Below, in pieces: positions 8,131-63,049 of a stretch of DNA of 64,000 nt; within the stretch, counting starts at the first letter, position 1; each line of letters begins with the position of its first letter. Where the stretch lies: assembly GCA_963575745.1 (NCBI GenBank), contig CAUYUJ010000237.1, positions 248,001-312,000 on the forward strand. The letters are read 5' to 3'. The translations under genes and the position numbers were made by a program. Source of the DNA: Prorocentrum cordatum (lineage: Eukaryota). Under the pieces are notes generated by a model. The model was not told the DNA's origin. It did no database searches and saw only the letters and a program-made list of their open reading frames with translations.

Positions 8131-8503
8131 TCTCCTTCTCCTCCTCCTCCTCCTCTCCTCCTCCTCCTCCTCCTCCTCCTCCTCCTCCTCCTCCTCTCCT
8201 CTCCCTCCTACCTCCTCCTCCTCCCTCCTCCCCCCTCCCTCCTCCTCCTCCTCCTCCTCCTCCTTCCTCCTCCTATCCTCCTCTCCTCCTCCTCCCCTCC
8301 TCCTCCTCCTCCTCCTCCTCCTCCTCCTCCTCCTCCCTCCTCCTCCTCCTTCCTCCTCCCTCTCTCCTCCTCCTCCTCCTCCTCCTCCTCCCTCCCTCCT
8401 CCTCCTCCTCCTCCTACTCCTCCTCCTCCTCCTCCCTCCTCCTCCTCCTCCTCCTCCTCCTCCTCCTCCCTCCTCCTCCTCCTCCTCCTCCTCCTCCTCC
8501 TCC
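8131..8503. repeat. (CCT)n microsatellite
   Basis: Directly visible. Confidence 0.95.
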
Positions 8504-13958: not shown

Positions 13959-14511
13959 GGCATAAACATATTCTTTTCGGAGGCCCGCGCGGGCCTCCGA
14001 CAGGTTCTGTTTATGCAGTCTTCCCCTTCTCCTGTTATTCTCGCCAACGTCTTCATAGTCGTCGAGCTGTAACATCGTCATCACCCTCGTCATCATCGTC
14101 GTCGAACTGTGTCGCCTTCATCGTCATCTTCTTCATCGTCGTCGAACTGTGTCTTGTTCATCGTCATTGTCTTCGTTGTCGTCTTCAGTGATCCGCAGCG
14201 AGGAAGCCCTCGGCCCTTCGGCCCGAGGAGAGCAGACGGGTTTAATCTCTCGCGGGCTCTGGCGCGATCCGTGAGGTTGTCGCGCGGTGGTGGGACACCT
14301 GGGGAAGTCTTGTCATGGTCTTCATCGTCGTCTACGTCGCGGTCCGTCACCACTCGAAGAGCAACAGTACAAGCAAAAGTTCTGCGGCGGTGGGACACTC
14401 GGGGGCGGCTTGCCATGGTCTTCCTCGTCGTCTCCGTCGGGGCCCATAGCGACAACTCAAACATACGTTCTCGGAGTTCCGCGCGGACCTCAAGAAATTA
14501 TGTTTGTGTCC
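13959..14511. mobile_element. MITE-like element with degenerate ~42-bp TIRs
   Basis: GGCATAAACATATTCTTTTCGGAGGCCCGCGCGGGCCTCCGA versus the reverse complement of 14471-14511, GGACACAAACATAATTTCTTGAGGTCCGCGCGGAACTCCGA. No TSD seen. Confidence 0.55.
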
Positions 14512-14793
14512 TCCTCCTCCTGCTCCTCCTCCTCCTCCTCCTCCTCCTCCTCCTCCTCCTCCTCCTCCTCCTCCTCCTCCTCTTTGCTTCAACCGACACA
14601 CACACCGGCTGAAATAGCAGCAGGCAGCATCAGCACAGGTTGTTGGAGGTCCGCGCGAGTCTGTTGGGTCGGCGCCGCCCCCCTGGGGTCCAGCGCACCG
14701 CAGTGGCGCGGGGACCGGCCCGCGGCGGGGAAGGGATACTCATCTCCAGCGTCACCATTAGGTCGTTTTCCCCTATCAGTCACCAGGAAGAGA

Positions 14794-19669: not shown

Positions 19670-20320
19670 AGGAAGAGGAGGAGGAGGAGGAGGAGGAGAA
19701 GGAGGAGGAGGAGGAGGAGGAGGAGGAGGGAGGGAGGGAGGGAGGGAGGGAGAGAGGGCGGAGGGTGGAGGGATGGGGAATGACGGGGAAAGGGATGAAG
19801 GAAGGAATGAAGAAAGGGAGGAAGTCAGGAAGGGAGGATAAGGAATGATGATGACGATGATGATGATGATGATGGTGATGCTGTTGATGCTGATGATTAT
19901 GATTATGATGATGATAATAGTATAAAGGTTTACGTTGATGTTGATGTTGAATAGGGTGGTGATGGTTGTGAGCATTTGTATGATTATAATTCTCAGTATC
20001 ATTACGATGCTGCTGCTGATGATGATGCGGCTCATGATAATGATAATGATGAGCATGATGATGATGCTGGTGGTGATGATGATTGTGATCACTATGTTTA
20101 TGTTTGGCATGATTGCGAATATTGCGATGAGATCGGTGATGGTCATGATATATTGGCGAAGGTGATGTTGCTGATGCTGATGGTGCTGGTGAGGATGGTG
20201 GTGAGGACGGTGGTGATGACGGCGCTGCTGACGGTGATATTGATAATGCGATTATGATAGCGATGATGGTGGTGATTATGAGGATGATGGGTGGCGAGGA
20301 GGAGGATGAGGAGGAGTAGG
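19670..20320. repeat. (GGA)n, (GGGA)n and degenerate (GAT)n
   Basis: Directly visible. Confidence 0.9.
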
Positions 20321-20804
20321 GAGGACGGACGTAGTCGAGCGCCCTGCCTGTCTCAGGCTCCGCCTCTTCCCGCTGCCCCGGATCGCGTCGCCGGACCTTC
20401 CTTGCCTCGTTCCGTTCTCCGGGGTTGGCCGGTCGAGGGTCTCCTCGATTGGTCAATCATTATCGTCGCTGTTTCCGCAAAATTCCTCGCTCGGGCCACG
20501 AGTAGTCTTTTCCTGAGGCTTGGAAGAGCAGGCCCTGACTTCACCCTCTGTGCACGCCACGGCACGGAGCCTCTGCGACAGGAAAGCGCACAGCAGCATC
20601 TTGACTCCATGGTGCCCCCTTTGGTGTTGGGGCTGTCTTCGAATGGCCCGAACCCCCAGGGTCCGCCCTTGCCCTTTTTTTCGAGGCGGACCCAGTCGTG
20701 GCGACGAGAAGCCTCCAGGAGCCACCCCAGAGGCAAGAGAAACGCCGGGGAGGGCCGCCGCCGCCTCGTGCGGCCCCCTCGGGTTCTCGGGCGCTCGGAG
20801 CCCT

Positions 20805-21264
20805 CCCCTCCTCCTCCTCCTCTTCCTCCTCCTCCTCCTCCTCCTCCTCCTCCTCCTCCTCCTCCTCCTCCCTCCTCCTCCTCCTCCTCCTCCCTCCTCC
20901 CTCCTCCTCCCCCTCCCCGCCCCTCCCCCCCCCCCCCCAGTTAGCGCGCCACCCTCTCAGAGGTTTTGGCCCCCCGACCTGCGCTCCGGCTGCCGAGAAC
21001 GGCGCGCCCCGCGCCCCCTTCCCGCGCCCCCCCCCCTCCCCCCCTGGCGGCGCACCGCCCCTGCGCGGCCATGGGCACGGGCGAGCTGACGTTCCCGTGG
21101 CCGCCGCCCTTCCCCCAGGGAGCTCTGGTCGGGCAGGTGCCGTTCCCCTTCCTCCTCTTCCTCCTCCTCCTCCTCCTCCTCCTCCTCCTCCTCCTCCTCC
21201 TCCTCCTCCTCCTCCTCCTCCTCCTCCTCCTCCTCTTCCCTCCTCCTCTTCCTCTCCCACCTCT
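20805..21264. repeat. Two (CCT)n tracts around a GC-rich spacer
   Basis: Directly visible. Confidence 0.85.
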
Positions 21265-21300
21265 TCCGTCGCCATGTTGGCTCAAACCATATTGCTCAAG
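21265..21300 (+). other. Near-complete DinoSL followed by a second truncated SL relic
   Basis: TCCGTCGCCATGTTGGCTCAAA is 19/22 identical to TCCGTAGCCATTTTGGCTCAAG and is immediately followed by CCATATTGCTCAAG (relic form CCATTTTGGCTCAAG). Confidence 0.88.
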
Positions 21301-21456
21301 TTGAAACCATCGGCCCAGGGCTTGAACTTGGACGTCGTCGAAGGCTGATCCACTGGAGCGGCCAGACCGACAGGCGGTCACACTTCCCTACGACCTCCAG
21401 CGAGCCCACCGAGGCGGCTGCAGTTCTCACGCAATCACATCCGCCTATTAGTCCCC

Positions 21457-22320
21457 ATGGCGGCTGCCAACGGAGGCCTGATGGCGATGGTCAACAGGAT
21501 GCTCGAGGACCAGATGAAGAGCATCCAGCAGTTGGTTCACAAAGAAAACCACACTGCCATGGCAGGGTATCAGGGGCTGATCACCGCTCTGGGCTCCGAG
21601 GTCTAGCTTCTTCGACAAGATCTTCACATTCAAAGTAAGCGTCTCGCTGCCGTCGAAAATTGCGGCAATCGTTGCGGCAGCAGTGCTGGCAGCGCTAGCA
21701 GCATTGCACCAAGAAGTCAATCGTGGGGCCAAGCCGTCGGCGACGAGGCCGTGAGAGTTGAGCGCGAGATCGACGACGGCGACAGCGACCCCACCATCCG
21801 CTTCGCGGGCACGTTCCCAAGGCCGCTGCTGATGAAGACCAGAGCTGCCCACTGAAGCCAGATGCAGGAAGCACTCCCCGAGCTGAGCGATGCGAATCGC
21901 GCCACTGCCATCACGGAGTAAGCCGGGTCTGCAAGCTCAAGTTCGCCAACGCCGATGACGCCCAGAGCTCCCGGCGCAGGATGATGGAGGTGAACATAGA
22001 GCGGGCTGACATCCGTGATGCGATGAAGTATCCGCTGGAAGCAAGGGTCGACCTCCCGCTCCACGCGAGGCAAAAGAATAGGCTTATTATTTGACGTGCT
22101 CGGGTCGATCAAGAAGAGCCAGTCCTGCACGGGCAGTTACATGCCTGGCGTCAACGGACACGAATGAGCGCTGCAGACTATCACAGAGGACGATGTCTTC
22201 AAGCTCGCCCAAGCCGTCCAGCAAGGCGGGGACGCGTTCAAGCTCGAGCCCATCCACCACAACCTCTCGCGCCGGGCCATCACGAAGGTGGCCATCGACC
22301 AAATCATCGCCAACCTTTGA
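21457..22320 (+). pseudogene. Disrupted ORF resembling LINE ORF1 (coiled coil plus RRM-like region)
   Basis: MAAANGGLMAMVNRMLEDQMKSIQQLV... then PTIRFAGTFPRPLL and VCKLKFANADDA. In-frame stops and frameshifts. Followed by an APE-like relic. Confidence 0.55.
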
Positions 22321-22479
22321 AGCCTTCCTGAAAGGCATCGCGTTTCTGATTTGGTTTCGGGCCCAGGCCCGGCGCGGTGCAGGGACGGCGCCAGCCAGCT
22401 CAGCGCCACCCCCCTCTCGCGCCCCCCCCGCGCCCCCCCCCTGCCCCGCCTCCCGCAAAGTCCCCGCTGCCTCCCTGCA

Positions 22480-23650
22480 AGAGCGTTCTGGAGAACGACG
22501 CGGCACTCGAGGGCCCTCACGGATCCGCGCGCGCAGATCTGACTCGGACGCGACGCAAGTTTCGCAAGTGATAAGCCGCACTGCGGGACACATTACACAT
22601 CGCTTGCCGCCGAGGGGCGCGCGGGCACCCGGGGGCCTTCCGAGTCTCAGACTCGCTCCCAAGTGCTCGCCGTCTGTCCGCTTGTCTGCCCTCGTGCCAG
22701 CGCTGGAGGCTTTCTCACGTTTGTCGAGACTGAGCTGCTGAGATGCTTCTCCGCCCCCCCCCCCCCGCCGCGAGTTCGCGCCTGGAAGCATCGCCCGCGC
22801 GAGTTTGGGCGGTCCCGGGGGGGGCCCGCAGATCGCTGGCGCCCGCGTTGACGCCTGCTGTCAGGAAGCAGTCTTTCGCCATGCAGTCATTCAGCTACGC
22901 CCCCCATCGCGCGCCGCATTCACTTTGCGCCCACGTCCAATATGCACCGTTGGCGCCGCCATAATCGGCGTTGCGCGCGGGGCTAAATTTCGGCCGCCAG
23001 GACAAAGCGCGCGCGCCCGCCCCCCCTCCGGCCGGCCGGCCGGCGCGCAGTTGCACGCAGCCCGACTGCAGCTGATCCGTTTAATGGACGGTTGCAATAG
23101 CCACGGCGACAAGCGCGCCCCCTTTAACAGGCGCAGCTTGGGACCACTACGACAAGAACAAGAACGGCAAGAACATGGGCCTATCAAAATGCCCAAATTA
23201 GTAATGAGTGGGCAACATATTGGTTATCAGCCGAAAAATGCGCCGCGAGATCACGAAGCTGCGCCCCCCGCCCGCAGGTGGATGCTCCGGGCGTCCATGA
23301 GCAACGCCGCGGCTCAACGGGCATCCAAAAGATCGCCTTCGAGGCCGATCCCCCCGACTGCGCAAGGGCCTCCGTCTCGCGCTTGTTCACGGAAACTCAA
23401 CGAGAGCTCCTCGCAGTCGTCGGGAGATGCGCCGGCGGACGGAGGCCCCGGTCGTCGAAACGCGCCACGAGCGGGCGCAGACAGGGCGGGCGTGGACGCC
23501 GAATTGTGCGAGTCGATCAATTTAGACGGCCCACCATTGCCGCCCGTCGCCCGTCAAGCCCGCGCGAACGCCTCCGATTCGGGCAAGGACATGGGCGATC
23601 ACGTATCAGGGATCAGTCAAGTCGACTTCCCGCCTGGGCCAGGGCACGGC
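22480..23650 (+). mobile_element. Heavily decayed LINE ORF2 N-terminus (APE relic)
   Basis: RTRRKFRK..LRDTLHIACRRGARG (22596-22625) resembles APE motif IxCLQExHG. Downstream CAHVQY and PIKMPK. GC-saturated. Confidence 0.45.
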
Positions 23651-25683
23651 TGATGAGTCTACTCTGGGGGGCGATTCCGAGGCCCGCGGTCCCGGGCCAC
23701 CCCCAATATCGGCTGGGGGGCCGTCGCCGACGTCGGCGCTTCCTGACGACTGCGCCGCGGAAACCTCGCGGGGAGATCTGCGCGGGGAGACGGCGGAGAC
23801 GATGGCCAGCGCGCCGGCGGCCGCCAAGCACGACGCCGAAGAGGCGGCCGGGCCGGGGGCGCCCGCGACGAAGCAGCCACGGAAGACCCTCAACCTGTCG
23901 GCCAGGCCCCCACTCGCGAAGCGGACCAGGACGGAGGGAATGCCAGGAGCAGAACCAGGTGCTCGAACCAGCGGGCGACCCTGGGGGCCGCGCTGCCGGG
24001 TCGCCCCTCCGCCGGGCAGTCCGCGCAGGATTTCGCGCGCCGGGTGCCTGGGCCTCGGCGCGGCGAGGGCCCCGCCTGCGCTCGCTCTCCGCGGGCCGGG
24101 GGCGCGGGAACCGACCGACACAGGACGTCGGTTGCCCCGTCGGGCTCATCGTCTTCCTCCGCCCGCACGGCGCGCCCCAACGCGTCGAGCCCCCGCGCCC
24201 GTGAGTCAAGCGCGCCCGTAGTTCGGTTGGGGGCTCGAACCCAGCCTGTCCAGAGCGATATGAATTTAGTGCGAAAAAATGAGCCAGATTCGCATTCATG
24301 TATTACTACGGCCTCACGGCCGGCGCCGCCGACCCTAAAGACGACGACAAATGCAAGGAGGAAGAGGAGGAAGAGGAGGAGGAGGAGGAGGAGGAGGACG
24401 AGGAGGAGGAGGAGGATGAGGAGGGGGATTAAGGTGGAAGGGAGCGGGAGAAGGCGAAGGAGATGTTCTCCATGTGGGCCGAGGGACTCGTAGCAGAGAC
24501 AGACAGGAAGCCTTGTGGCCTGCGGCCCTTCCCGCCGCCGTGCTGGCGTTGTGGTTGAGAGGCCTATGAGAATATCTGCGGTGCAATCGCTGCGGCGCAA
24601 GCTATGGGTTGCAACTGATTAAAACAAACGAGCTGGAACATCCCATGCACTGGCAAACGTCCCACCCACCCACCCGCAACTTGGTTTGCAAAACCCATGC
24701 GGTGGCGATTGCGATGCATGCTTGGCGTTGGCTTGTGCGTCTCTGCGACTGCGCCAACCCAAGCATGCGCGCGCAGCGGCCAGCTAGCTTGGCGCGACCG
24801 ACGCGGCCGCGGTGGCGCTGACCATTCGGCGCATCCTATCGGGCACGTCAGTGCGAGTCGACGACTTGGGCGGGCGCGCATCATTGCAACGTCGACAACG
24901 GTAGACACGATGATGATAGTAGCGATGTTGGTGGCGATGTTGGCAACGGCGAAGGCGCGGCCAGTGCGGGCGCCGATGCTGATCACGCCGACGACGATGA
25001 CGGCGTCCTCGCGTCGGCGATGAAGGTCTTGGAAAGAGTTCGACATGCGTGCGCTGCCGACGCGCGATAGTGGCCCGCATGGCATTGTTTGACACGGACC
25101 GCGCCCCCCCCCCCCCAGCATGCGCGCAAGGGCGCGCGAATGATGTCGGCATGCGGCGCCAAAATGCCCACTTGGCAGGAATCCATGAAACATAAAGTTA
25201 TTAGTTTCCCAAAAATGCACAAAAGCTCGAACGCACGTTTGGCTGGAAAAGGGATGTTGCGAAACCATGTGTGTTATGTGTGTTGGATATTCTGTTTGGA
25301 ATGCATTACGAAATTAAAAGGGTTATATTGCTGTCGGCACGCGCGCGCGACAACGCGCGCGCGTGCACTTCGCCCCAATTGTTGCAACAAAACTTCGCGA
25401 GGGCACGCGAGCAAGGGCGTTCGAACGATTTCGACATGCGCGCGCGAAGCCAACTTGGTAACATGGTATGAAAAACTTTGAAAACCAATTGTTCTCTTAA
25501 GAGTTCGCAGGAGCTCGCGTCCAAGCGTTGCGAAACCAATTGTTTTGAAAACCCGCGCTGCGAAACCATATGCTTTTCCCAACCATTTTGTGGTGTCGGG
25601 CCCTCGTTTTGAAGAGACGGTCCCCGCGTTCCCTCCCCCTTTCCTTCCCTCCTTCCTTCCTTCCTCATTCCTTCCCTCTTCCC

Positions 25684-27655
25684 TCGTGGCCCCACAGGGA
25701 GCCCCACCGCAGGTCCCAGTGGCAGGGTCCGCATGCAGTTCCACCTCGATTTCAGCGTACCTTTTCACGCGCTGCGTGGCCCCATAGGAAGCTCCGCCCA
25801 AAGTCCCAGTGGCAGGGTCCACATGCAGGTCCACCTCCATTTTGGCAAGCCCCTCACACGGTTCGTGGCCCCATAAGGAGTTCCACCGAAGGCCCCAGTG
25901 GCAGGGTCCGCATGCAGCTCCATTTCCATTTCGGCGCACCCCTCACACGCTTCGTGGCCCCATAGGGAGCCCCGCCGAAGGCCCCAGTGGCAGGGTCCGC
26001 ATGCAACTCCACCTCCACTTCGGCGCACCCTTCACACGCTTCGTGGTCCCATAGGGCGCCCCGCCCAAGGTCCAAGTGCCAGGGTCCGCATGTAATTCCA
26101 CCTCCATTTCGGCGCACCCCTCACACGGCTCGTGGCCCCACAGGGAGCTCCGCCGAAGGCCACAGCGGCAGGGTCCGCATGCAGTTCCACTTCCATTTTG
26201 GCGCACCTTTCACACGTTTCATTGCCCCATAGGGAGCTCCACCGAAAGTCCCAGTGGAAGGGTCCACATGCAGTTCCACCTCCATTTCGGCGCACCCCTC
26301 ACACGGTTCGTGGCCCCATAGGGTGCTCCGCTCGAGGCCCCAGTGTCAGGGTCCGCATGTAATTCCACCTCCATTTCGGCGCACCCCTCACACGGGTCGT
26401 GGCCCCATAGGGAGCTCCGCTCAAGGCCACAGTGGCACGGTCCACATGCAGTTCCACCTCCGTTTTGGCGCACCCTCACACGTTTCGTTGCTCCATAGGG
26501 AGCTCCGCCGAAGGCCCCAGTGGCAGGGTCCGCATGCAACTCCACCTCCACTTCGGCGCACCCTTCACACGGTTCGTGGCCCCATAGGGCGTCCCGCCCA
26601 AGGTCCAAGTGCCAGGGTCCGCATGTAATTCCACCTCCATTCCGACGCACCTCTCACATGTTTGGTGGCCCCACAGGGAGCTCCGCCGAAGGCCCCAGTG
26701 GCAGGGTCCGCATGCAGTTCCACTTCCACTACGGCGCACCCCTTACACGTTTCGTGGCCGCACAGGGTGCTCTCAGAAGCTTCAGTGGCGGGGTCCTCGT
26801 GCAGTTCCACCCGCATTTCGGCGCACCCCTCACACGGATCGTGGCCCCATAGGGAGCTCCGCCGAAGGCCACAGTGGCAGGGTCCGCATGCAATTCCACC
26901 TCCACTTCGGCGCACCCTTCACACGGTTCGTGGCCCCATAAAGCGCTCCGCCGAAGGCAGGGTCCGCATGCAGTTCCACCTCCACATCGGCGCACCCCTC
27001 ACACGTTTCGTGGCCTCATAGGGTGCTCCGCCGAAGGCCCCATTGGCAGGGTCGCATACAGTTCCACTTCCATTTTGGCGCACCCCTCACACGTTTCGTT
27101 GCCCAATAGGGAGCTCCGCCGAAGGCCCCAGTGGCAGGGTCCACATGCAGTTCCACCTCCATTCCGACGCACCTCTCATATGTTTGGTGGCCCATAGGGT
27201 GCTTCGCCGAAGGCCCCAGTGGCAGGGTCCGCATGCAGTTCCACCTCCGTTTTGGCGCACCCCTCACACGTTTCGTGGCCCCATAGGGAGCTCCACCGAA
27301 GTCCCAGTGGCAGGGTCCGCATGCAGTTCCACTTCCATTTCGGCGCACCCCTCGCTCGTGGCCCCATAGGGCCCTCCGCCGAAGGCCCCAGTGGCAGGAT
27401 CCGCATGCAACTCCACCTCCACTTCAGCGCACCCTTCACACTTTGCGTGGCCCCATAGGGAGCTCCACCGAAGGCCCTAGTAGTGGCAGCGCCCGCACGC
27501 GGTTCCACCCAGCATTCGGGCGCACCCCTCACACGTTCCGTGTCCTCACATGAGGCTCCACCGACGGCTCCGGTGGCAGCGTCCGCATGGCGTACCCGTG
27601 TCAATTTTGGCACTCTTGTCACACGCGTCGTGACTCCAGAGAGGTTCACCGAGGT
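25684..27655 (+). repeat. 89-bp satellite array 1 (~22 units, subtype GCATGCAGTTCCACCTCCATT)
   Basis: Unit GGCCCCATAGGGAGCTCCACCGAAGGCCCCAGTGGCAGGGTCCGCATGCAGTTCCACCTCCATTTCGGCGCACCCCTCACACGTTTCGT; period 89 (25809, 25898, 25987, 26076). Confidence 0.97.
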
Positions 27656-38412: not shown

Positions 38413-38774
38413 GGGTAGTCGAGTGCACCCCCCTCGGAGGCTACGATCCTCGTGAGGGGTGTCGAAGAAAGGCCCTCAACGCTCCGGTTCTCATGATTAT
38501 TGACAAGCGGCGCGCCAGCGACGGGCGCCGCCAGTGCTCTGCGCGCAGTGCTCGCGGGCAGCGTGGCCACCGAACCCGTCGCCGCGAAGCGGGGGCGCCT
38601 TGCCGCGCGCCCTCACTGCGGGGCGCCTGCGGAGGAACTTGAACACCGCACGCGGGCATGCCCGCGAGGGGGGGCCAGATCGCCAGGCCGTGCTCCTCCT
38701 CCTCCTCCTCCTCCTCCTCCTCCTCCTCCTCCTCCTCCTCCTCCTCCTCCTCCTCCTCCTCCTCCTCCTCCTGC

Positions 38775-39480
38775 GGTCCCAGAAGGCTTCACCCGCGAGG
38801 CCGCCCGCGCCCGCCTGCCGCCAGAGACGGCGCGCACTGGCGTCTTGCTCCAGAGCCCCCTCGCCTGGCCGCCCTCGCGGAGAGGAGGCCCGGCTGCCGA
38901 CGCCGCCGCCAGCACTGCCCGGCCCGCAGGCAGGCCCGCAGGCAGCGCCGTCGAGGTGGCTGCGCCGACGGCTCCTCGTGCACCCCGGAGACCCCCCCGG
39001 GCCAGGGGCCGGGGCCAGCCGGGGGTCCGCCTCGACGACGGCGCCGCGGGCCGCGTGGGCCGCGGTGGCCCTGTGGACAGCCCGCGGACGGCGCAGCGCG
39101 CCGAGTTCTGGGCGAGCGCGCGGGCGCTGCGCCTGGCGGGCGGCCGCCATGGAGGGGGTCCACGGACCCCAGTTCGTCGGCCCCGGGGTCGCCTGCCCGA
39201 CCGAGTGGGCGCGTGCAGACTTCCGGGGAGCCATGGCTCCGCGTTTCCGCAGCGGCATGCCGCGCGCACGGAGGGTCCAAGCGCACCTGCGGCGCGCGAG
39301 CGCGGGCTGTCGGAGGAGGGCCGCGCGGGCAACGCGGCGGCAGACCGGGCCTGGCCAGGCTGGCCGCGGAGGCTCGGCTGCCAACGCCCGTGCTGCGTCA
39401 GGAGCGCAAGCGCCAGCTCGACGCGCTGGCCTCAGTCCAACGGGTCTCGGCTCAAGGCCAACCACGCGCCGCGTGACCCC
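38775..39480 (+). mobile_element. GC-saturated LINE RNase H fragment
   Basis: Ordered relic motifs CADGS (38961-38975), PRTAQRAEFWA, RVQAH and GNAAAD match the RNase H motifs TDGS, QTxxRAE, KVxAH and GNxxAD. Confidence 0.75.
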
Positions 39481-41919: not shown

Positions 41920-42399
41920 GGTCGTCGTCGTCGTCCTGGTCGTAGTCCTGGCGGTGGTGGTGGTGGCTGCGTCATCGTCGTCGACGTTGTCGCCGCTGTC
42001 GTGGAGGTGGCTATCGGCGCGCCTGGGCGCCGAGCTTGCCCTTCGGCTCGGCGCGTGGCTCGTCCTCGCCGGCCTCGGGGTGATCGTGTCGACGCACAAG
42101 AGGACGGCGCCTCCCGCTCCCGGCGGCGCGCCTCCTCCTCCTCGACCCCCCCCCTCCCGAGGGCCTCGGGGGACGCGGGCTGCGATGGGCCCCTCCTCCT
42201 CCTCCGCCTCCTCCTCCTCCGCCTCCTCCTCTTCCGCCTCTCCTCCTCCCTCCTCCTCCTCTCCTCCTCCTCCTCCTCCTCCTCCTCCTCCTCCTCCTCC
42301 CCTCCTCCTCCTCCTCCTCCTCCTCCTCCTCCTCATCCGCCTCCTCCTCCTTCTCCTCCTCCTTCTCCTCCTCCTCCTCCTCCTCCTCCTCCTCCTCCT
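41760..42399. repeat. (GAC/GTC)n tract (41760-42000) and (CCT)n tract (42190-42399)
   Basis: Directly visible. Confidence 0.85.
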
Positions 42400-45960: not shown

Positions 45961-46023
45961 CTAGTGGCATGGCCACAGCGCTACCGGTGAGAGGATTCAT
46001 GCGCAAGGATCGGTAAGCGGTAA

Positions 46024-46216
46024 GAGGAGGAGGAGGAGGAGGAAGAGGAGGAGGAGGAGGAGGAGGTGGAGGAGGAGGAGGAAGAGGAGGAGGAAGAGGG
46101 GGAAGAGGAGGAGGAGGGGGAGGAGGAGGAGGAGGAGGAGGAGGAGGAGGACAAGGAGGAGGAGGAGGAGGAGGAGGAGGACAAGGAGGAGGAGGAGGAG
46201 GAGGAGGAGGCGGAGG
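46024..46216. repeat. (GGA)n microsatellite
   Basis: Directly visible. Confidence 0.95.
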
Positions 46217-53339: not shown

Positions 53340-53566
53340 TCGTCTTCCGTCCTCCTCCTCAATCTCGTCCTCCTGACGCAGTCAGCTTTTTACCTTGCAC
53401 ATTTCCCCTCCTCCTCCTCGTCCTCCTCTTTTCTATTTCCTCTTCCGCCCTCGTCATACCTCATCCCTGTCCTCGTCCTCCTCCTCCTCCTCCTCCTCCT
53501 CCTCCTCATCCTCCTCCTCCTCCTCCTCCTCCTCCTCCTCCTCCTCCTGCTCCTCCTCCTCCTCCC
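53340..53566. repeat. (CCT)n-rich tract
   Basis: Directly visible. Confidence 0.85.
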
Positions 53567-54004
53567 CGATGCGCCCGCGCGAGCTCCCGCAATCGTGGGA
53601 GTGGGAATGGCCTCTCGGGCTGGCCCGCGAGACCTGACGCCACGACCGGGCCGCAGGCGACTTCGGAGTTTGAGACAAGGGCGCGCGTGGATGGCGAGAC
53701 AGGTTTCTTGGATTCAGAAAGTCCGGTTCTTGGTTTGTGTCATTCAAAAAACCATGTTTTTTGAATTCACGAAAAAACAGGTTCAGCCACGCGCGGAGGG
53801 CGGAGGGGGAGGGGGAAGGGCTTCTCAGAAACACCCCTGCTTCTTAGAAGGCGCGGGCCTTATCTGTAGACGGAAGGCGGGCGCCTTCCAAGGAGCAGCC
53901 TCCTTCTAAGGAGCCCTCCCCCCTCCCTCCACCCCCCTTTGTGCGCACCGCCAGCAAGTGAGGTCTGATCTCGGTGGACGCCTCTGGGCGGCCAGGCGCC
54001 GCCG

Positions 54005-62490: not shown

Positions 62491-63049
62491 CGTTATCTCC
62501 TCTTCCTCCTCCCCTTTTTCCTTTCCTCTTCCCCCTCCTCCTCCCCCTCCTCCTCCTCCTCCTCCTGTTCCTCCTCCTCTTCCTCTCCCCCCTCTCCGCT
62601 TCTTTTTTTGTCCATTCCCCCCATCCCTGGCGGCGCGGCGAGGTGCCGCTCGGCCTCTCTGCGAGTCAAGCGGCAAAGGGTGAGAGAACCCCCCCGAATT
62701 AGGAACGGTTTTTCCCAAGCCGCCAAGGGGGCCCGAAGGTAGCGCAAGAGGCGGCGCAGGTTTTGAAATCCCCCAGGGGCTCGTCGGATTCGGCTGGCCC
62801 TCTCCGGTAAGGTAGGCAAGGGCACCGCGTCCAGGTGCTCAATCCCCCGTATCCCCCTCCCCTCGTCTTCGTTCCCTCCTCCATGTCCCCCTCCCCCTCG
62901 TCCTCGTCCTAGCCATTTGATACAACAACGACGACGACGAAGAAGGCGACGACAAAGAGAAGGGATAATGAGAGGGGGAGACCGCTGTGTTGGGATCTCG
63001 TGGTGCGCCTCTCGGGGCCCTATGGGAGGCAGTTTTGAAGCCTCTGGGG

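Follow-up and report, generated by a model that had tools for sequence, protein, structure and literature searches.

A probable processed retrocopy with a tandem spliced leader and a predicted LINE-1 ORF1p-like cargo in Prorocentrum cordatum

We analysed a 64,000-nt stretch of the genome of the dinoflagellate Prorocentrum cordatum (GenBank assembly GCA_963575745.1, contig CAUYUJ010000237.1, positions 248,001 to 312,000 of the forward strand; hereafter the window, with all coordinates counted from its first letter), in which an initial annotation had proposed a long interspersed nuclear element (LINE) that is itself trans-spliced and reinserted together with its spliced leader (SL). Our analysis leads to a narrower reading. 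With a probability that we put at roughly 0.7, a processed retrocopy of a mature SL-trans-spliced mRNA, now dead, occupies 21265 to about 22400, and this mRNA encoded only a putative RNA-binding protein resembling ORF1p, the product of the first open reading frame (ORF) of LINE-1 (L1). Nothing found at the locus indicates a whole LINE. The reading is carried by the tandem SL at the 5' end and by the broken reading frame behind it, which has homologues throughout its length and a predicted fold in common with L1 ORF1p.

Results

A complete spliced leader and a truncated relic at the 5' end

The initial annotation placed a complete dinoflagellate SL (DinoSL) at the head of the locus, and direct reading of the letters shows this assignment to be correct to the base (Table 1). 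Compared with the canonical 22-nt SL, given as DCCGTAGCCATTTTGGCTCAAG in PMC7245778, the copy in the window has three mismatches: A>C at position 6, T>G at position 12 and G>A at position 22. The first of these turns the SL-internal CCGTAG into CCGTCG, with loss of the internal AG, and the last converts the SL-terminal AAG into AAA, so that the terminal AG is mutated as well. The T>G change, at 21276, produces CCATGTTGG, which is shared with the non-canonical DinoSL ATCGTAGCCATGTTGGCTCAAG; PMC7245778 cites the latter as the single non-canonical form from an earlier study of a Polarella transcript. This substitution could be a real SL variant rather than decay.

Searched as a 21-mer with up to three mismatches on both strands, the SL has its sole match in the window at this locus (18/21 at 21266-21286), where the analytic expectation is about 1.1e-3 per window, and none of 100 dinucleotide-preserving shuffles contained any match. 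The SL lies on the coding strand, 171 nt upstream of the ATG at 21457. Abutting it exactly is a 14-nt relic, CCATATTGCTCAAG, which the initial annotation had also read correctly; it stands at edit distance 2 from the 15-nt relic form, and a distance of 2 or less is reached at only 4 of the 127,960 positions of the window. Together, SL and relic are statistically secure and properly placed 5' of the ATG on the coding strand. Shorter SL-derived strings add little elsewhere in the window, with a 10-mer occurring at chance level (4 found, 5.1 expected) and a 15-mer with up to three mismatches yielding 6 matches against 1.9 expected, of which the present locus alone is convincing. Between the relic and the ATG lies a putative 5' untranslated region (UTR) of unique sequence, whose 156 nt agree with the approximately 155 nt first estimated.

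In the literature, a complete SL with a relic cut at nucleotide 7 behind it is the signature of mRNA recycling (PMC3229502, PMC12014239, PMC7245778). In this model, credited to Slamovits and Keeling in PMC3229502, an SL-bearing mRNA is reverse-transcribed and inserted into the genome, the resulting copy is trans-spliced at the AG of its encoded SL, and the product is reinserted (PMC3229502, PMC12014239, PMC7245778); several relics indicate several cycles of retroposition (PMC3229502, PMC12014239). The arrangement found here therefore points to at least two rounds of retroposition of the ORF1p-like mRNA.

The reading frame is a decayed member of a multi-copy family

Between the ATG at 21457 and the terminal TGA at 22318-22320, the ORF1-like frame is not intact. 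Three in-frame stops interrupt it (TAG at 21604, TGA at 21853 and TGA at 22165), the second of which replaces the conserved W of the motif AHWxQMQ, and two frameshifts fall near 21912 and at 22083-22100. In tblastn searches with ten family members, homology continues across these lesions in three pieces, in frame 1 from 21457 to 21912, in frame 3 from 21912 to 22082 and again in frame 1 from about 22085 to 22317. The pieces are colinear along the whole protein, no intron-sized gap separates them, and the frame-shifted middle piece reaches up to 59.6% identity to the family protein P0038 over 57 residues. Judged against its homologues, 21457-22320 is a pseudogene, in which at least three stops and two frameshifts have accumulated.

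With an X inserted at each stop, this frame was compared with 5.8 billion proteins and matched a single entry, a 273-aa unnamed product of Prorocentrum cordatum (P0001), at E 4e-41 with 40% identity and 97% query cover. A hidden Markov model (HMM) of the family, run over the six frames of the window, recognised this locus only (iE 2.8e-27, and 2.3e-9 for the shifted middle part), and blastn of 21201-23700 revealed no second copy inside the window apart from a (TCC)n repeat. The plus-strand frames of 21457-23654 gave no Pfam family match. Rfam returned no family at the gathering threshold in the 64-kb window and no 5S RNA, with the proviso that Rfam may lack a dinoflagellate SL RNA model, and a sub-threshold snoRNA-like match inside the ORF (E 0.5) was taken as chance.

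An exhaustive phmmer search with the intact protein P0001 against 1.84 billion cluster representatives (E<=1e-3) delimits a family of 29 representatives including the query, drawn from P. cordatum gene models (9), a EukProt set (10), ENA contigs (8) and JGI/IMG (2). Full-length members measure 273-377 aa, and many of the other matches are fragments of 60-170 aa; the environmental full-length members (280-329 aa) come from contigs of only 1.2-2.5 kb. Conserved motifs extend along the full length of the family alignments A1 and A3. These sequence comparisons support a multi-copy family in P. cordatum that was previously unannotated.

The family stands apart from known domains at the sequence level. 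P0001 has no Pfam match at E<=10, the L1 ORF1p families PF02994, PF17489 and PF17490 included. None of the 13 family members scanned with Pfam contains a reverse transcriptase (RT) or an apurinic/apyrimidinic endonuclease (APE) domain. For the 29 members of alignment A3, 40 Pfam families reached E<=10; among the 25 that were listed (the other 15 being single-member families), Transposase_22, RVT and Exo_endo_phos are absent. A profile of A3 found no relative among PDB sequences, with noise only (best E 0.19, an antibody chain). A homology search with alignment A1 recovered 6 proteins only, no relatives were found in the metagenome contigs (alignment A2 and P0020) or in the viral and genome contig collections (A2), and a search for longer relatives brought up only the chimeric RecQ model P0023, which is weak evidence.

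Several of the retrieved sequences deserve separate mention. The P. cordatum gene models P0013 and P0030 join the ORF1p-like module to PPR repeats and zf-FLZ, and P0023 joins it to parts of FA_hydroxylase and RecQ helicase; these fusions are probably chimeric predictions across inserted, dispersed copies. A further group of sequences, many of them fragments, comes from the EukProt set labelled as the green alga Pyramimonas sp. CCMP1952 (P0004-P0006, P0008, P0014, P0015, P0017, P0021, P0024, P0027, P0038 and P0039). Two of these share 90%-identity clusters with Prorocentrum cordatum sequences (P0005 with P0040, and P0024 with P0041), which suggests that the set contains dinoflagellate sequence.

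SL-encoded peptides (AILAQ, SHFGS, PFWLK and shorter forms) were not present in the retrieved family proteins, few of whose models reach into 5' UTRs. Among sequencing runs, a single DNA run (share 0.05) and no RNA run was listed; compared with 21100-23700 at 80% likeness, the DNA run supplied short contigs that nowhere bridge the ORF. One contig of 151 nt is identical to 21347-21497, and two others match up to 21300, that is through the SL and relic, and continue into unrelated sequence. The latter two point to other SL/relic-headed loci in that DNA sample.

A predicted fold in common with LINE-1 ORF1p

The fold of the family was approached through P0003 (331 aa), modelled with AlphaFold2 from the 29-sequence alignment A3. 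The model is confident (mean pLDDT 87.6, pTM 0.57) and comprises a predicted N-terminal coiled-coil helix at 7-94 (pLDDT about 92-96), a disordered linker at 96-124, a beta-alpha-beta-beta-alpha-beta domain of the RNA recognition motif (RRM) type at 130-222, and a C-terminal domain at 223-325 composed of a helix, four strands and further helices. A single-sequence model of P0001 was poor (pLDDT 43.8) and was kept out of the fold search; it nonetheless includes a helix at 5-67.

In a Foldseek search of the PDB, all of the ten top-ranked matches to the P0003 model were human LINE-1 ORF1p (2ykq, 2ykp, 2yko and 2ldy), represented by chains of the trimer and by the solution structure of the RRM and C-terminal domain, and generic RRM proteins followed from rank 11 on. 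The best ORF1p match had an E-value of 2.6e-4, with probabilities of 0.92-1.00; alignments spanned 187-264 columns (mostly 188-192) on chains of 176-204 residues, at 11-14% identity. A structure search of the ESM Atlas with residues 125-331 placed L1 ORF1p clusters carrying Transposase_22, Tnp_22_trimer and Tnp_22_dsRBD in rows 1, 2, 3, 6 and 10, with Baculovirus-FP-type clusters beside them. The TM-scores by query were 0.58, 0.53 and 0.50 over 164, 144 and 146 aligned residues covering both domains, the longest of these alignments extending from 126 to 322. A third method, VIA-align, gave generic RRMs instead, with L1 ORF1p not among the 50 matches listed. On the basis of the model, the family appears to have the coiled coil, RRM and C-terminal domain architecture of an L1-type ORF1p, at the level of the fold only. 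Of the ORF1-like frame initially proposed, a homologous family and a predicted L1 ORF1p fold thus remain; an ORF1p match at the sequence level was not obtained, and the frame is broken.

Boundaries of the insert

Base composition sets the locus apart from its surroundings in a window of 61% G+C (GC) overall. Upstream of the SL, GC is 0.70-0.85 with a strong excess of C; between 21250 and 22350 it falls to 0.54-0.67 and the skew disappears; and from 22350 to 22500 it rises to 0.76-0.82 with an excess of C, much as in the upstream flank at 20700-21150. This break at about 22350-22400 places the apparent 3' end some 30-80 nt past the ORF1 stop. The insert most likely extends from 21265 to approximately 22350-22400, a unit of about 1.1 kb made up of SL, relic, UTR, ORF1 and a short 3' UTR, and an ORF1-only unit of this length agrees with the short contigs on which full-length relatives were found.

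Immediately upstream of the SL lies a pyrimidine-only (TCC)n microsatellite with a period of 3, 34.7 copies and 92% matches. Repeats of the (TCC)n/(GGA)n type are scattered through the window, for example at about 1100-1570, 2900, 3700, 6700, 8160-8500, 14510-14580, 19670-19730, 20800-20900, 24360-24430, 38700-38780, 42260-42360, 44300, 46020-46180, 53470-53570 and 62530-62600, and for this reason the tract before the SL probably belonged to the target DNA already and did not arrive with the retrocopy.

No detectable endonuclease or reverse transcriptase downstream

The initial annotation saw an APE-like relic downstream of the ORF1-like frame, in what is now a 303-aa open frame (Table 1). We found no Pfam, PDB-sequence or Atlas signal for such a domain across 22330-24201. 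Pfam searches of 22330-23654 drew a blank both for the three plus-strand frames (E<=1) and for the long ORFs of either strand (E<=1e-3), and PDB sequence searches with the ORFs at 22742-23650 and 23128-24201 gave no match at E<=10. The Atlas features computed for 22742-23650 do not look like those of a protein (recognition 975, best score 0.83). Across the window there are 316 stop-to-stop ORFs of at least 110 aa, of which 224 were scanned after 92 low-entropy ORFs had been dropped; neither in these nor in the plus-strand frames of 21457-23654 did Pfam detect an RT, an APE or a restriction-enzyme-like (REL) endonuclease. The only Pfam matches among the 224 were a sub-threshold MBDa and a TrbL match on a hydrophobic ORF. 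Since ORF1 is still recognisable at E 4e-41, an adjoining ORF2 of the same age should have been visible, and 22742-23650 is most likely a frame that stays open by chance in GC-rich sequence, outside the element. The HMM comparison that had been suggested for APE and RT thus came out negative at the locus, in the 224 window ORFs and in the 13 members scanned, which partly undermines the retrotransposon interpretation.

Table 1. Features at and around the SL-headed locus, in window coordinates
Feature	Position	Strand	Basis or remark
(TCC)n microsatellite, 105 nt, pyrimidine-only upstream flank	21150-21254	+	Tandem Repeats Finder
Complete DinoSL, DNA-encoded	21265-21286	+	19/22 counting the leading T; sequence TCCGTCGCCATGTTGGCTCAAA
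Relic DinoSL, 14 nt	21287-21300	+	SL positions 8-22 with one mismatch and one deletion
Putative 5' UTR of the retrocopied mRNA, 156 nt	21301-21456	+	Separates the relic from the ATG, which lines up with the beginning of the family proteins
Pseudogene of an L1-ORF1p-like protein (predicted coiled coil, RRM and C-terminal domain)	21457-22320	+	Homology, tblastn, HMM and predicted fold
Short putative 3' UTR remnant	22321-22400	+	3' boundary inferred from composition
Open frame, 303 aa, earlier taken as an APE-like relic	22742-23650	+	No detectable relative

Other features of the window

Three further features lie away from the locus. A 373-aa frame on the plus strand at 41576-42694 matches Pfam TrbL/VirB6 (E 8.9e-7, 29.3 bits against a cut-off of 25.9), probably as a hydrophobic or low-complexity artefact. 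A tandem array with an 89-nt unit occupies 25684-27000 and beyond (at least 14.9 copies, 81% matches) and is open in several frames on both strands. Finally, (ATG)n and (GAT)n arrays at 19845-20083 form an AT-richer island beside GGA/TCC arrays.

Discussion

A retrocopy probably mobilised in trans

We infer the following order of events, together with the 3' boundary of the copy and its mobilisation in trans. An earlier gene copy would have carried a DNA-encoded SL left by a first retroposition, and its transcript would have been trans-spliced at the AG inside this encoded SL, which would leave a 15-nt relic behind a fresh SL. An RT provided in trans would then have copied the mRNA to its very 5' end, and the product would have landed in low-complexity DNA rich in C and (TCC)n, where it would have decayed to its present state of three SL mismatches, three stops and two frameshifts. 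With no RT detected at the locus, the enzyme would have had to come from elsewhere. LINEs are the presumed source of RT for retroposition according to Song et al. 2017 (PMC5585692), who also proposed a promoter-like TTT(T/G) motif within the SL. The suggestion that each copy could be expressed through its SL acceptor without a promoter of its own is in keeping with the published recycling model; that model applies to all dinoflagellate retrogenes rather than to this element in particular, and in the present copy the internal AG is mutated.

Several observations weigh against this interpretation. Neither a poly(A) run after the stop nor a clean target-site duplication was seen at the locus, and the sole similarity between the flanks is low-complexity C-rich sequence, the C-rich units at 22403-22452 resembling 20900-21046 at 71-76% identity. 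Base composition is the one line of evidence for the 3' boundary and hence for the claim that the unit contains ORF1 only. The anatomy described here comes from a single genomic copy. Likeness to ORF1p is a matter of fold, with none of the 29 members showing Transposase_22 among the families listed; TM-scores to the ORF1p chains in the Foldseek search are low (0.19-0.35), and the C-terminal domain was searched jointly with other parts of the protein.

Relation to known systems

The locus shares with DinoSL-tagged retrogenes and retropseudogenes, which have been surveyed on a genome scale (PMC5585692, PMC12014239), the full SL, a relic cut after nucleotide 7, a UTR and an intronless coding region. 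It differs from them in that its cargo is ORF1p-like rather than metabolic or signalling, that the copy is dead, and that both the SL-internal and the terminal AG are mutated.

With the human LINE-1 ORF1p structures (2ykp, 2yko, 2ykq and 2ldy) the family has in common a predicted long N-terminal helix and RRM, followed by a putative C-terminal alpha/beta domain, whereas its sequences match neither Transposase_22 nor Tnp_22_trimer nor Tnp_22_dsRBD, identity is low and no ORF2 follows. Among mammalian elements, those known as HAL1 (half-L1) are L1 derivatives that encode ORF1p only. The ORF1p of HAL1b consists of coiled coil, RRM and C-terminal domain (PMC7586669). Like HAL1, the unit described here is short, contains an ORF1p-type gene alone and was copied by retroposition; HAL1 has L1-type 5' and 3' ends and a poly(A), whereas the present unit starts with a host SL and shows no poly(A). 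Within dinoflagellates the nearest comparison is SymbioLINE of Symbiodinium, in which an ORF1 precedes an APE/RT-bearing ORF2 and copies have target-site duplications and no poly(A) tails (PMC5890265). An ORF1 is common to both; that of SymbioLINE encodes a DNA methyltransferase (DNMT) and is accompanied by an ORF2, of which there is no trace here. The term 'spliced leader' occurs 0 times in the SymbioLINE paper (PMC5890265).

Alternative explanations

One alternative would refine the retrocopy reading rather than exclude it, and we regard it as possible, though clearly a minority view. The family may be a non-autonomous, ORF1-only 'half-LINE' with an SL-capped monocistronic mRNA as its intermediate, in which case ORF1p would bind its own RNA in cis, the ORF2p of autonomous LINEs would do the copying, and SL plus relic would be the regular 5' end of the element. 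The predicted ORF1p fold fits such an element, as do the many diverged and fragmentary copies in one genome, some of them within chimeric gene models in the manner of a dispersed repeat, the short contigs that hold full-length relatives, the two or more rounds of retroposition behind the copy, and the precedent of mammalian HAL1. Set against this, just one SL-bearing copy was seen and the structure of the 3' end is undefined. Moreover, large size, divergence and wide retroposition also characterise the host gene families of dinoflagellates (PMC5585692, PMC11453091), so that copy number alone is not the mark of a transposon. The family may equally be the ORF1 of full LINEs whose ORF1 and ORF2 have received separate annotations, or a domesticated gene family.

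It is unlikely that the frame belongs to an ordinary host RNA-binding protein family with no link to LINEs, its likeness to ORF1p being convergent or very ancient and the locus an SL-tagged retropseudogene. Such an origin would account for the lack of sequence-level membership of Transposase_22 and for the rigid-body scores, which favour generic RRMs. In addition, a preprint on two Symbiodinium genomes reports that genes with DinoSL relicts and RT genes have functions without overlap (10.1101/783902). Two findings speak against a host family: L1 ORF1p came first in two independent structure searches that took in both the RRM and the domain following it, and the predicted order of coiled coil, RRM and C-terminal domain is that of ORF1p.

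Still less probable, to a degree that leaves it little room, is a full LINE-like element over 21265-23650, in which SL and ORF1 would be followed by a decayed APE/ORF2. LINEs with an ORF1/ORF2 architecture are abundant in dinoflagellates (PMC5890265), the predicted fold of the first frame is ORF1p-like, and a 303-aa open frame does lie downstream. Against these stand the blank searches of 22330-24201, which are hard to reconcile with an ORF1 that is still readily recognised when ORF2 is usually the better conserved of the two; the turn of GC and skew to a flank-like, C-rich character at about 22350; and the frequency with which chance ORFs of 300 aa arise at the GC content of this window. LINE insertions are, in addition, typically truncated at the 5' end and not at the 3' end, which also counts against a full element here. 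Of the trans-spliced retrotransposon first proposed, the recycling signature of SL and relic and the predicted ORF1p fold have held up; APE and RT have not, and the unit seems to end near the ORF1 stop.

The site-specific non-LTR elements SLACS, CRE and NeSL target SL RNA genes, whose SL exon is split by the insertion. They and the present locus both associate a retroelement-type gene with SL sequence; here, however, the SL stands as the unbroken 5' end of an mRNA that was copied into DNA, with a relic behind it and no SL RNA gene context. That the locus is a chance match, a piece of an SL RNA gene or an element of this type aimed at SL genes has nothing in its favour except the presence of SL sequence and is barely credible, given the empty shuffles and a joint occurrence of SL and relic far below chance, the relic and UTR that follow the SL in place of a GT-initiated SL-RNA intron, the Rfam result reported above with its proviso, and an SL exon that is uninterrupted.

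Significance for dinoflagellate retroposition

SL-tagged retrocopies are well documented in dinoflagellates, and in this respect the locus is unremarkable. What is modestly new is its cargo, an unannotated multi-copy P. cordatum family with no Pfam match and a predicted LINE-1 ORF1p fold, ORF1p being the protein that packages RNA in the machinery thought to drive retroposition in dinoflagellate genomes. In the literature searched, we found no description of a dinoflagellate ORF1p-like family with SL relics, or of a dinoflagellate ORF1 or LINE with a spliced leader. Song et al. 2017 (PMC5585692) did report the Gene Ontology term 'RNA-dependent DNA replication' as enriched among SL-relict retrogenes, from which it follows that SL-tagged retroelement genes had already been seen in passing. 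The published hints thus point both ways, with this enrichment on one side and the lack of functional overlap in the preprint (10.1101/783902) on the other.

More speculatively, and at odds that we consider rather long, L1-type elements of dinoflagellates may have been taken apart by the mRNA processing of their hosts, with the SL-headed ORF1 RNA becoming a self-propagating 'half-LINE'. Trans-splicing would then free ORF1 as a capped mRNA, and ORF1p, by binding its own RNA, would promote its propagation; each new copy would bring with it the acceptor AG of its SL and could do without a promoter. In that event, copies of a transposon family would ordinarily begin with SL plus relic, which would be no mere by-product of retrogene recycling. 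Should the family prove to be regularly SL-headed and without ORF2, transposon biology and SL trans-splicing would be connected, and there would be a concrete candidate for how retroposition became rampant in dinoflagellates.

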